A DNA stretch of 64,000 nt from an uncultured Burkholderiales bacterium (GTDB lineage: Bacteria; Pseudomonadota; Gammaproteobacteria; Burkholderiales; Eutrophovitaceae), in NCBI GenBank assembly GCA_951812315.1, contig CATOSA010000036.1:1237-65236 (forward strand), written 5' to 3'. Shown in pieces: positions 30,535-55,312 of the stretch (position 1 is its first letter; each line of letters starts with the position of its first letter). The notes beneath the pieces are model-generated. The model was not told the DNA's origin. It saw only the letters and a program-made list of their open reading frames with translations, and ran no database searches. The position numbers and the translations under genes are program-made.

Positions 30535-30596
30535 TTTATTTCAGCTCTCGAAAAAGCCGCCATTTGAGACTGTGTAAATAGTCTGGGGTTTTTGAG

Positions 30597-30629
30597 AAAA
30601 TACCCGCACATTGTTGCGGGTATTTTTTT
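30597..30629. terminator. Terminator-like hairpin inside the IS1182 left end
   Basis: AAAATACCCGCA-CATTGT-TGCGGGTATTTT(TTT); identical at 54057-54089. Confidence 0.75.
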
Positions 30630-31517
30630 ATGCACATTCAGGGACAAAGCCGGGATCAGGCGACGCTATTTCCGGAGCGGCTCGATGATCTGATAGGCCA
30701 GGACAATGCAGTCCGGGTGATCGACGCGTTTGTTGATACGCTAGATTTGAATGCACTTGGTTTTGCCCGCATGCAGCTTCAGGCCACGGACCGGCCACCG
30801 TACCACCCGGGTGATGTGTTAAAGCTGTATTTGTACGGCTATATGCACCGAGTACGCAGCTCACGGTGTCTTGAGCGCGAGTGCCAGAAGAACCTCGAGG
30901 TTCTGTGGTTGCTGAACCGGCTGGCGCCAGATCACAAGACCATTGCCAACTTCCGGGTGGACAACCGTGTGGCCCTGACGCGCGTGTGTCGGGCGTTCGT
31001 GCAGTTTTGCCGCTCGCAAGCGCTGTATGGCGGCGAGCAAATCGCGGTTGATGGCAGCAAGTTCAGGGCGGACAACAGCCGCAGCCGAGTCACACACAAG
31101 AAAGATCTGCAACAGCGAGTCAGCGGCCTGGATCGCAGGATCGGAGCGTGGCTCGATGCGCTCGAAGACAATGAGGACAATGATGACCAAGGGCCCAACG
31201 GCGGCGACACCCAAGGCGCTCTTGGCGCACTCAGGGCCGAGCGCGAGACCTTAACCGAACGCATCCGGGCGATGGACGATGCGCAAGTCTCGGCGCAGCC
31301 CGATACGGACGAGCAGGCGCGGGTGATGCCCCGCGGACATATTGGCTACAACGTACAAAGCACGGTCGATGGCAAGCACCGCCTGATCGTGGATGTGGAC
31401 GTGGTACAAAATGCCAATGATTTGCAGCAGTTGTATCGCATGGCGCGACGCAGCCAACGCCAACTGCAGCGCGATCGGGTGCAGGTACTGGCCGATGCAG
31501 GCTTGTATGGTACGTCC

Positions 31518-31710
31518 TGCACCTGAGGGTGCCGGGGTGGAGGGACGATGCAGGCTATCTGCCGTAACCGGACAGACCGAACTAGCCATGTCCCCACTCT
31601 GTCTTTCTGAGCGTCGATTTGGGAAGCAGCGGCAAGTGTTTACGCACCTGACCGCCGATAGAAACAAGCTAACGCGGCAAAGACAGCCCCCCTCGGCACG
31701 TTTAAGTGTA
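31518..31710 (+). ncRNA. Putative IS110 bridge RNA
   Basis: Basal stem 31518-31534/31694-31710 encloses two stem-internal loop-hairpin arms; first arm holds a 13-nt identity to the target site; ends approximate. Confidence 0.8.
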
Positions 31711-31789
31711 CGGCGATACGGGCGGCTTGAGCACGGCGTTGTCCATGTATGCAGCCGTTGTTGCCATTGGCCGTGGAAGTGGAGCTTAC

Positions 31790-32737
31790 ATGTCTGATTC
31801 ACACAAGAGCATCGAAGTCATCGGCGCGGACATTAGCCAGTGCGAAATCGTTATTGCCTGGGCGCGCTCGCAGCGACCTTGCCAGCGTATTGCCAATAAG
31901 CGCGAGGCCATTGTGGTCTGGCTCAAACAACTTCCCGCAGGCTGTGTTATCGGCATGGAGGCCACGGGCCGGTTACATCAGCAGCTGGCTGATCTGGCTG
32001 CAGGACATGGACACGTCGTGTACGTCCTTAACCCCAAGCATGTAGCGTCTTACGCCAGGGGCGTGGGCCAGCGCGGCAAGACCGATCCAATGGACGCGGG
32101 CGTGATTGCCCGTTATGTCGTACCCAGCGCCTTGCAGCGCACGCTGCGTGATTTGATCAGCCAACGCGCGAGCGTCGTGCGTCATACTACGGCGCTGCGC
32201 CAGAGCATCCGGGCTACGGGCACGCGGTCCAACCGCGCCTTAAAGCGCGCGCATCAAGGCGCCTTGAAGAGCCTGAACACGCTGCTCGCCGAGCTCAACA
32301 ACGAGCTCAAACGCGTCATTGCACACAACGATGAACTGGAGAACAAACGCAAGCAACTGCAGCGCATTCGCGGCATTGGCTTTATCAACAGCGCGGCGTT
32401 GACCCATCGCTTCGATCACACGCCCTTTGCCAATAGCGATGCGGTGGTGGCCGCCTACGGATTGGACCCGCGCCCGAAGGATTCTGGTACTCATCAGGGC
32501 AAGCGGCGCCTGACCAAACAGGGCAATGCGGAGGATCGGCGGCTGATCTACCTGGCTGGGCAAGCAGCGGCAAAGACAAAATTGTTCAAACCAATTTATC
32601 GCGCACTACTAGCCAGGGGCTTGGCAACCACCGAGGCCATTGTGATCCTGGCCAGAAAGCTACTGCGCATCGCCTTTGCCATCTGGACTTCAGGACAACC
32701 GTTCAAGCCTGATATGGTCGGAAAAAAACCTTGCTAA
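31790..32737 (+). CDS. IS110 recombinase (DEDD RuvC-like + Tnp domain), 315 aa
   Basis: RBS GGAG; IGADIS, MEATG, KTDPMDA, GLDPRPKDSG, ILARKLLRIAFAIW. Confidence 0.92.
   Translation: MSDSHKSIEVIGADISQCEIVIAWARSQRPCQRIANKREAIVVWLKQLPAGCVIGMEATGRLHQQLADLAAGHGHVVYVLNPKHVASYARGVGQRGKTDPMDAGVIARYVVPSALQRTLRDLISQRASVVRHTTALRQSIRATGTRSNRALKRAHQGALKSLNTLLAELNNELKRVIAHNDELENKRKQLQRIRGIGFINSAALTHRFDHTPFANSDAVVAAYGLDPRPKDSGTHQGKRRLTKQGNAEDRRLIYLAGQAAAKTKLFKPIYRALLARGLATTEAIVILARKLLRIAFAIWTSGQPFKPDMVGKKPC
32731..32736 (+). promoter_or_regulatory. -35 half of the IS110 circle-junction promoter (-10 half TATGGT at 31506-31511)
   Basis: Joining the ends gives TTGCTA-17 bp-TATGGT. Confidence 0.7.
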
Positions 32738-33420
32738 AAACCATAGGAACTATTCCAATGGTCAGCTGCTAAAGCGCTGCCAGGCCCCCTATGTGCCGGT
32801 ACAGCGCGCCACGAACAACCAAGGCGATGGCTGCTACTTCGACAAATCGGAGTTTACCTACTGCGGCGAGGGCGATTACTACGAGTGCCCGGCCGGTGAG
32901 CACTTGCCAAAGAAGACCCAGTCGAACAAGCAGCGCCACTGGCTGTACACCAGTGAGGCGTGCACGAACTGTCACATCAAGGCGCGGTGTACGGCCGCTA
33001 AGCAGCGCTGGGTGACGCGCCACTTCGAGGAAGACGTGCTTAACGAGGTCGCCGATCGCACCGCGGCCAATCCACTCATGATGCAACGGCGCAACGGCAT
33101 GGTGGAACACCCATTTGGCACGCTCAAGCGGCGTATGGACGGCGGGCGTTTCCTGGTAAGAGGCATACAGAAGGTCAAAGCCGAGATGGCATTGGCCGTG
33201 ACCGCTTATAACCTGACCCGTGCTATTAACATCCCGGGAACGAAGCAACTCTGCAAGGCACTGGCTATCTAATCACAAATGAAAAAGAGGCCACCTCGAA
33301 CAAGATGGCCTCCGGGTTTTTACACAGCCTCCATTTGGTGGCTTTTTTTGTTTTGCGAGGCTGTCACGCTGGCCTAGTTAAGGTATTATCCTCAAATCAA
33401 CCTGTAAGTTATTGCCGTAA

Positions 33421-54025: not shown

Positions 54026-55312
54026 GAGACTGTGTAAATAGTCTGGGGTTTTTGAGAAAATACCCGCACATTGTTGCGGGTATTTTTTTATGCACATTCA
54101 GGGACAAAGCCGGGATCAGGCGACGCTATTTCCGGAGCGGCTCGATGATCTGATAGGCCAGGACAATGCAGTCCGGGTGATCGACGCGTTTGTTGATACG
54201 CTAGATTTGAATGCACTTGGTTTTGCCCGCATGCAGCTTCAGGCCACGGGCCGGCCACCGTACCACCCGGGTGATGTGTTAAAGCCGTATTTGTACGGCT
54301 ATATGCACCGAGTACGCAGCTCACGGTGTCTTGAGCGCGAGTGCCGGAAGAACCTCGAGGTGCTGTGGTTGCTGAACCGGCTGGCGCCAGATCACAAGAC
54401 CATTGCCAACTTCCGGGTGGACAACCGTGTGGCCCTGACGCGCGTGTGTCGGGCGTTCGTGCAGTTTTGCCGCTCGCAAGCGCTGTATGGCGGCGAGCAA
54501 ATCGCGGTTGATGGCAGCAAGTTCAGGGCGGACAACAGCCGCAGCCGAGTCACACACAAGAAAGATCTGCAACAGCGAGTCAGCGGCCTGGATCGCAGGA
54601 TCGGAGCGTGGCTCGATGCGCTCGAAGACAATGAGGACAATGATGACCAAGGGCCCAACGGCGGCGACACCCAAGGCGCTCTTGGCGCACTCAGGGCCGA
54701 GCGCGAGACCTTAACCGAACGCATCCGGGCGATGGACGATGCGCAAGTCTCGGCGCAGCCCGATACGGACGAGCAGGCGCGGGTGATGCCCCGCGCACAT
54801 ATTGGCTACAACGTACAAAGCACGGTCGATGGCAAGCACCGCCTGATCGTGGATGTGGACGTGGTACAAAATGCCAATGATTTGCAGCAGTTGTATCGCA
54901 TGGCGCGACGCAGCCAACGCCAACTGCAGCGCGATCGGGTGCAGGTACTGGCCGATGCAGGCTATTCCAATGGTCAGCTGCTAAAGCGCTGCCAGGCCCC
55001 CTATGTGCCGGTACAGCGCGCCACGAACAACCAAGGCGATGGCTGTACACCAGTGAGGCGTGCACGAACTGTCACATCAAGGCGCGGTGTACGGCCGCTA
55101 AGCAGCGCTGGGTGACGCGCCACTTCGAGGAAGACGTGCTTAACGAGGTCGCCGATCGCACCGCGGCCAATCCACTCATGATGCAACGGCGCAAAGGCAT
55201 GGTGGAACACCCATTTGGCACGCTCAAGCGGCGTATGGACGGCGGGCGTTTCCTGGTAAGAGGCATACAGAAGGTCAAAACCGAGATGGCCTCCGGGTTT
55301 TTACACAGCCTC
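54026..55312 (+). mobile_element. IS1182-family element, copy 2 (1287 bp, two internal deletions, transposase pseudogene)
   Basis: Near-identical to copy 1 with the same IRs; lacks IS110; 112- and 119-bp deletions. Confidence 0.92.

Follow-up and report, generated by a model that had tools for sequence, protein, structure and literature searches.

An IS621-like IS110-family element with a predicted bridge RNA, found at the ends of a miniature transposable element and at a one-mismatch site in IS1182-family transposase genes

The DNA considered here, a stretch of 64,000 nucleotides from contig CATOSA010000036.1 of an uncultured Burkholderiales bacterium (assembly GCA_951812315.1) that we refer to as the window, carries an insertion sequence (IS) of the IS110 family lodged within the transposase gene of an IS1182-family element. 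Comparison of interrupted and uninterrupted IS1182 copies gives the bounds of the insert as 31504-32749, a length of 1246 bp with a CT core on both sides; the empty site is ...GCCGATGCAGG-CT-ATTCC..., reading ...GCAGG-CT-ATTCC, and the insertion is scarless. The locus and the second, uninterrupted site in the window are laid out as follows.

30551-31503, + strand: interrupted IS1182-family element, left arm; its transposase open reading frame (ORF) begins at 30630 and is broken off after the codons L-A-D-A-G
31502-31503, + strand: left CT core, from the empty-site comparison
31504-32749, + strand: IS110-family (IS621-like) element, 1246-bp variant, bounds from the empty site
31790-32737, + strand: DEDD/serine recombinase ORF of 315 amino acids (aa), with PF01548 and PF02371
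32750-32751, + strand: right CT core, from the empty-site comparison
32750-33349, + strand: right arm of the interrupted IS1182-family element, with the 3' part of the transposase gene, to 33272
54953-54965, + strand: empty site in the window's second IS1182 copy, which is degraded and has an ORF of 341 aa

The host element belongs to the IS1182 family: against NF033551 (cutoff 270) the 464-aa product of an intact copy at another place in the genome reaches 357 bits, and the two transposase halves in the window match DUF772, DDE_Tnp_1 and DDE_Tnp_1_6. The IS110 cut point falls directly after D289-A-G of a D-A-G-Y motif in this transposase, as a sequence-only reading of the window had proposed. 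We take the aspartate of this motif to be the second catalytic Asp, in the D-x-G-Y/F motif of IS4/IS5-type transposases, and the position of D289 near 82-87 of the 200 positions of PF01609 is compatible with that assignment. Insertions of the IS110 element into IS1182 inactivate the transposase. The 464-aa ORF is retained in 8 of the 19 empty IS1182 copies of the genome. The second copy in the window (54100-55300) lacks about 130 bp internally when compared with the first, and its right end is different.

The insert has a 286-nt non-coding left end upstream of its gene and is without terminal inverted repeats. The 315-aa recombinase has the two domains characteristic of the family (PF01548, E 2.8e-14; PF02371, E 7.8e-14), from which we predict an N-terminal DEDD RuvC-like domain and a C-terminal Tnp domain with a catalytic serine. 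A 326-aa form from the same genome (P0001) scores 182 bits on NF033542, 'IS110 family RNA-guided transposase' (cutoff 140). Its E-value against chain 8wt6_A, from the bridge-recombinase structures solved for IS621, is 1.9e-24. Residues D14, E57, D99, D102 and S232 are invariant in 21 aligned sequences, the serine lying in a D-S-G that aligns with the E-S-G of IS621. The window's protein differs from the 326-aa form by an in-frame deletion of 11 aa (alignment columns 138-148; window 32108-32112), placed between two short direct repeats just after D99/D102. The 1246-bp variant is represented by eight complete, near-identical copies, among them all five complete copies resident in IS1182, and the full 326-aa recombinase is encoded by seven copies of 1278-1280 bp; the short form may be active itself or may be moved in trans.

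Positions 31546-31558, in the left end of the element, carry CGATGCAGGCTAT, the same 13 bases that make up the uninterrupted site at 54953-54965. This 13/13 identity, to which the sequence-only reading had drawn attention, is confirmed: the two positions are the only occurrences in the window even when one mismatch is allowed, about 0.12 chance matches at <=1 mismatch being expected and two or more arising in 1 of 100 shuffles. The segment lies 42 nt inside the element in 20/20 copies. The view that the 13-mer was duplicated from the flank, or agrees by chance and guides nothing, could draw on the single-sequence fold of the left end and on the lack of an Rfam match (both given below), but the segment spans the core, keeps its place in all 20 copies and covaries with the flank across 30 relatives, and we give such an origin practically no credence; the earlier statement that it is not a flank duplication is borne out.

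The covariation was followed in relatives drawn from species genomes and from metagenomes, the latter being the best 80 of 354 metagenome relatives. Among 38 loci at 58-81% protein identity, 33 have a near-invariant scaffold around a variable segment, and there are 30 distinct flank/guide combinations. Five loci that have no loop scaffold (L143, L144, L145, L150 and L151) are omitted from the counts; their left ends may be cut off, the matches starting near the contig start. The right end is uncertain in L142, L146 and L163 at the looser setting, and L146, with an odd flank (CAAACC) at <=1 mismatch, was retained and accounts for the mismatches at the core T and in the right flank.

On these grounds the left end is predicted to encode a bridge RNA of about 175 nt, in which a 5' stem-loop is followed by a target-binding and a donor-binding loop, with these parts.

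31516-31535, + strand: 5' stem-loop (consensus helix 1, 97.6% of cells paired)
31536-31598, + strand: target-binding loop with its closing stem, 31536-31547 pairing with 31589-31598 (helix 2, 99.3% paired)
31548-31556, + strand: left target guide AUGCAGG followed by CU, assigned by covariation in relatives and the IS621 layout
31559-31575, + strand: inner hairpin that caps the target-binding loop (helix 4, 100% paired), with a variable loop on an invariant stem
31582-31585, + strand: right target guide CUAG, reverse complement of CT-AG; its first base covaries with RT+2, the second base of the right flank
31586-31587, + strand: CC at the handshake position, complementing the target's own GG and not the donor's AA
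31599-31686, + strand: donor-binding loop, with stems 31599-31606/31679-31686 and 31611-31614/31672-31675 (helices 5 and 6)
31621-31625, + strand: candidate left donor guide GGGAA, its final base changing with the terminal base of the element's right end
31662-31670, + strand: putative right donor guide AAACAAG, then CU; ACAAG is the reverse complement of CT+TGT

The consensus of the 30 related sequences holds 44 pairs, with 98.7% of cells paired against 35-48% when the partners are slid. The closing stem and the CUGCCG-UAAC-CGGACAG hairpin both fall within it, and the sequence-only reading had thus placed the target-binding loop, its closing stem and its hairpin correctly. Compensatory change is seen in two pairs only, one in each of the donor-loop stems, helices 5 and 6 (CG/UA 19/7; GC/AU 15/12), and most stems never vary, so far as this alignment goes; the stems are conserved rather than proven by covariation. 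The 289-nt left end folded as a single sequence is not unusually stable (z = -0.42), and support for the structure comes only from the alignment.

In the target-binding loop the 5' strand corresponds to the left target and core, and the 3' strand to the reverse complement of the core and right target. The seven left-guide bases agree with the seven bases left of the core in 26-30 of 29-30 comparisons per position, four positions varying, and the natural guides GCGGG, CCAGG, CCGGG, UUACGGG and AGCCGGG each occur with a matching flank. The 3' strand matches RT+2 in 28/30 relatives (25/27 in a second comparison), GUAG occurring with CT-AC and CUAG with CT-AG. From RT+3 to RT+7 the match is 5-13 of 27, near chance, and an extension of the right guide over these positions was therefore rejected. 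A bulged pairing of GAA(C)UAG with the CT-ATTC of IS1182 can be drawn on paper, and the comparison of relatives gives it no support. Taken together, these patterns indicate that the guide is AUGCAGGCU plus CUAG and that the cognate site is ATGCAGG-CT-AG, 11 bases. Family matches of the recombinase and covariation in the relatives both support the IS621-type bridge RNA that had been proposed, and we conclude that the element is an IS621-like IS110-family insertion sequence with a predicted bridge RNA.

The 13-base match can be divided accordingly. Nine of its bases (AUGCAGG and CU, 31548-31556) are established guide positions, and to this extent the view of the whole segment as a guide stands. 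The remainder does not: C31546 and G31547 are constant scaffold bases that pair in the closing stem (C-G in 29/30, G-U in 30/30), and U31558, two bases past the core, is likewise constant. Because these three are constant in the relatives and match the relatives' targets in only 11/29, 1/29 and (at RT+2) 0/30 cases respectively, their agreement with IS1182 is a coincidence with the scaffold. A31557 matches RT+1, the first base of the right flank, in 28/30 relatives, RT+1 always being A, and is hence uninformative. The expected covariation of the segment with insertion sites thus holds for the seven left positions and fails for the scaffold bases. TAGCC, earlier noted as the opposite strand of the loop, is located at 31583-31587 and overlaps the right guide. 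Because the right guide CUAG pairs with CT-AG and not with CT-AT, the IS1182 site is best described as a 10-of-11 site, predicted to be mismatched at the second base right of the core.

The host assembly (4.27 Mb in 70 contigs) contains 19 complete and six partial copies of the element. The 20 copies with a left end have identical guide bases, one of them with a single A-to-C change in the closing stem. Twelve of these 20 follow a repeat end, ...CTTCGTGAAATATGCAGG-CT, always in the same orientation relative to it; the IS1182 residents are five complete copies plus a 5'-truncated one identified by its right flank; and the other 3/20 lie at other sites. Six of the 25 IS1182 copies are thus occupied and 19 are empty. 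The repeat is a miniature inverted-repeat transposable element (MITE) of about 244 bp with terminal inverted repeats of 18-20 bp, whose ends occur 69 times genome-wide at <=2 mismatches; 21 of 24 inward-facing pairs of ends are spaced 242-259 bp, and most are flanked by CTAG (an example, L221, is at G000:C25:7150-7550). We presume it to be an IS630-type element, with TA within CTAG. Compared with Rfam, the MITE gave only a chance-level miRNA match. The element therefore takes a fixed position and orientation in the terminal inverted repeat of another element, and the same holds for L139, its closest relative, and for a contig of a marine-sediment run (X5). The two site classes share ATGCAGG-CT-A, the next base being G at MITE junctions and T in IS1182. 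MITE ends come in two variants, GCGGG and GCAGG, and the IS110 element is found at GCAGG ends only. Occupancy by site class is as follows.

Perfect site ATGCAGGCTAG: 8 complete copies and 2 known only from the right end; 0 empty
ATGCAGGCTAT (CTAT): 5 + 1 occupied; 22 empty (19 in IS1182, 3 unique)
ATGCAGGCTAA (CTAA): 3 occupied; 2 empty
ATGCAGGCTAC (CTAC): 0 occupied; 2 empty
ATGCGGGCTAG, the commonest MITE end: 0 occupied; 19 empty

Perfect and CTAT sites differ in occupancy with Fisher p = 1.7e-5, a figure that overstates the difference, the copies not being independent events. The DNA encoding the guide is the IS1182 13-mer itself, a 10-of-11 target, and is occupied in 0/20 cases against 6/25 for IS1182 (p = 0.027). 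Since both this DNA and the three unique ATGCAGGCTAT sites are empty, flanking context or selection must also matter.

Several further features of these repeats were recorded. Between two MITE ends 3.7 kb apart (L219, G000:C6:285300-289200) lie a transposase gene of the IS1595 family and pieces of type I restriction-modification or defence-methyltransferase genes; the stretch was not accepted as the autonomous parent of the MITE. About five MITE ends (e.g. in C20, C8, C26, C46 and C67) read ...ATATGCAGG-CT-TG followed by non-IS110 sequence, and these could be element remnants, footprints or variant flanks. A second IS110-like left end (G000:C22, near 27413) has the same first ~20 bases, with a different loop and a different flank (...GTCAAG-CT), and is probably a distinct element with another guide. 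In the element itself, TTGCTA (32731-32736) and TATGGT (31506-31511) come to lie 17 nt apart only when the element is circularised, and form a possible circle-junction promoter for the RNA and the recombinase; a promoter/terminator scan of the integrated copy over 31380-31850 returned no promoter-like site. The upstream box was picked by eye:

32731-32736, + strand: possible -35 box, TTGCTA

L139 (81% aa identity, 1279 bp, same element ends) has the guide GCGGG and the flank GCGGG-CT-AG. It comes from a metagenome and adjoins the end of a MITE of the family described above; over about 255 bp that MITE is 82-84% identical to the copies in the genome studied here. In the X5 contig the MITE repeat end comes before an element of ~95% identity. 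The left guide of the window recurs in L168 (60% aa) at an unrelated site ending CT-AA, and most other relatives have ATCCGGG-CT-AC at the ends of small palindromic repeats. A tblastn comparison of the IS1182 transposase with the loci of 160 relatives (478 kb, many with short flanks) gave no IS1182-like gene, no relatives of the recombinase were found at E<=1e-30 in 28 other genomes of the same family, and none of the contigs of runs X4, X5 and X6 bridges an IS1182/IS110 junction.

We favour, with a probability of roughly 0.8, an account in which this is an IS621-like element whose home target is the MITE end and for which IS1182 is a one-mismatch secondary target. The bridge RNA's target-binding loop would read an 11-base site; its cognate, ATGCAGG-CT-AG, would be met mainly at the junction of the MITE terminal inverted repeat with CTAG, the home niche of this element and apparently of its closest relative as well. 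The IS1182 gene would merely happen to contain ATGCAGG-CT-AT and would be used with lower efficiency, each such insertion truncating the transposase right after the D-A-G of D-A-G-Y. The account is built on the element bounds, the copy census, the guide-target covariation and the occupancy, from which we infer expression of the RNA, the geometry of its pairing, the relative efficiencies of the sites and the working form of the recombinase.

The sequence-only reading had gone further, proposing that the guide evolved to hit the GAT GCA GGC TAT (D-A-G-Y) codons of IS1182, a site under constraint and present in many copies, and that the lineage is an RNA-guided hyperparasite. The 13/13 identity and the 9/9 match of the left guide are what this proposal predicts, as are the occupation of 6/25 IS1182 copies with the transposase truncated at D289-A-G each time. 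The G-to-A difference from the guide of the closest relative creates the IS1182 match, and the five complete IS1182 residents are all of the 1246-bp variant, the youngest, whose copies are near-identical; this is consistent with the element having entered the IS1182 niche recently. Against this, three of the 13 matches are constant scaffold; the right guide is mismatched to IS1182 and perfect for CT-AG; 15 of the 20 copies with a known left flank lie elsewhere, 12 of them at MITE ends; and no perfect site is left free, against 19 empty ones in IS1182. L168, at an unrelated site, and the element of the X5 contig, at a MITE end, have the same left guide, and no IS1182-like gene lies beside any of the 160 relatives' loci. 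A near-cognate 11-mer would arise by chance in about 2.5% of 1.55-kb elements, which is not rare over the repeat families of a genome. It had also been suggested that the proposal would fall if the same guide were found at unrelated sequences; such insertions exist, at MITE ends and at other sites, although the objection is weakened by the fact that the sites share the 10-mer ATGCAGGCTA. We regard a guide programmed against D-A-G-Y as unlikely.

A variant of this idea is that retargeting has been caught half-way. It is doubtful, in our estimation, that a G-to-A change in the guide (GCGGG to GCAGG) has been followed by selection that now favours IS1182; we are equally hesitant to suppose that the element has in this way left the majority of MITE ends (19 empty) and gained some 25 IS1182 sites, or that the right guide simply lags behind, being CUAG where AUAG would be perfect for IS1182. 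Were it so, IS1182 would be a host-neutral multicopy landing pad, and the system an IS-on-IS parasite that is emerging rather than established.

The number of independent IS1182 insertion events lies between one and six, the haplotype evidence being mixed. One or a few off-target insertions might have given an IS1182::IS110 composite that was then multiplied by IS1182 transposase acting in trans or by recombination between copies, in which case IS1182 would scarcely count as a target. All five complete occupied IS1182 copies have G at the position equivalent to window 31336, compared with 8/24 copies overall (p = 0.0013), and two occupied copies share both a single-nucleotide polymorphism (SNP) at element base 11 of IS110 and an IS1182 left-arm haplotype; these shared alleles point to common descent of at least some of the IS1182 insertions, and the eight empty copies with the 464-aa ORF could supply transposase. 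On the other hand, a 47-bp deletion in the right arm is present in three occupied copies and absent in two, and neither the left-arm haplotype nor an A/G SNP within IS110 is uniform among the occupied copies, so a single origin would need later recombination. Multiplication of a composite is a real possibility, which we put somewhat below even odds.

Several observations weigh against the MITE-end account or limit it. The left guide matches IS1182 perfectly, 9/9, and the A-for-G guide base that separates the element from L139 is also the base needed for the IS1182 match, so this guide change may have been favoured for opening access to IS1182. Which sites are occupied depends on history and selection too, and not on intrinsic efficiency alone. 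Eleven residues of the longer form, six of them at least 90% conserved, are missing from the recombinase encoded by the window's copy. No Rfam family is matched at E<=1 in 31000-33300. The donor loop is partly resolved: relatives read AUACAAG, the reverse complement of CT+TGTAT, at the position of AAACAAG (31662-31668), but the first six bases of the element's left end are invariant among relatives and hence uninformative for donor covariation. On the other side of the loop the base after GGGA is A with ...GGAA in six loci and U with ...GGAT in about 21, with three exceptions, and no pairing of this candidate left donor guide to the core is evident. The CC at 31586-31587 pairs with the target GG in 27-30 of 30 relatives, the donor there being AA or AT, so that the IS621 handshake rule, by which these target-loop bases complement the donor and not the cognate target, is not followed. 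In the available part of the work on IS621, handshake bases that paired with the cognate target allowed cleavage and blocked strand exchange (PMC11208160; PMC11208158). Since CC complements the target's own GG, this subfamily may therefore differ from IS621 at strand exchange, and by the same comparison the IS621 rules may not carry over in full.

The genome amounts to a natural specificity experiment, in which one guide has faced dozens of perfect and one-mismatch sites. A mismatch at RT+2 is tolerated at a lower rate (A, 3/5 sites occupied; T, 6/28; C, 0/2), and none is accepted at the third base to the left of the core (0/19). The relatives add some ten natural guide variants on a near-invariant scaffold, which should be useful for defining the programmable positions in this subfamily, and the conserved departure from the handshake rule deserves to be flagged.

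In IS621, as described in the available part of PMC11208160, the 5' strand of the target loop carries the left guide and its 3' strand the right guide; the wild-type IS621 target is given as ATCAGGCCTAC. The element described here resembles IS621 in its DEDD and serine recombinase, upstream non-coding region and CT core, in a predicted RNA of about 175 nt that would hold two internal loops besides a 5' stem-loop, and in a left guide of 9 nt on the 5' strand and a right guide of 4 nt on the 3' strand; ATCAGGCCTAC is also close to the ATCCGGG-CT-AC of most relatives. It differs in that the CC after the right target guide complements the target GG and not the donor, in a candidate left donor guide without evident core pairing, and in a target that consists of a MITE repeat end plus CTAG, unlike the repetitive extragenic palindromic (REP) element of IS621. 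Bridge recombinases are described, in the portions available of both reports, as inserting where the core and one arm match and the other arm is imperfect (bioRxiv 10.64898/2026.08.31.748434; PMC11208160). The IS1182 site, which matches in the left arm, the core and RT+1, is a parallel, although those data concern IS621 in E. coli or in vitro and ours a natural genome census that includes selection and history. For the 'dual-match' bridge recombinase of ISPpu10, it is reported that a DNA hairpin 5' of the target is required in addition to pairing with the RNA (bioRxiv 10.64898/2026.03.19.712850). Like ISPpu10, as there described, the present element belongs to IS110 and keeps to copies of a single repeated sequence, and by analogy a need for a DNA hairpin of that type could explain the differing occupancy of identical 11-mers. 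In a limited look at the literature no IS110 element was described as residing in the D-A-G-Y codons of IS1182, and Supplementary Data 2 of PMC11208160, with target motifs for each guide pair, may list the guide.

The closest parallels to the MITE insertions are elements that live in the ends of other elements. IS1383 reportedly inserts into the inverted repeats of IS1384, and IS4321 and IS5075 are said to insert into the terminal repeats of Tn21. Compared with these by title only, the element described here likewise uses a specific site in the terminal inverted repeat of another mobile element; unlike them, since they use the ends of full transposons or insertion sequences, its main target is the end of a non-coding MITE, and it has an extra near-cognate site inside a transposase coding sequence. 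IS110-type insertion into mobile-element ends and near-cognate off-target use have both been described already, and the data show no new principle: by analogy with IS1383 in IS1384 and IS4321/IS5075 in Tn21, the home target would again be the end of another mobile element.

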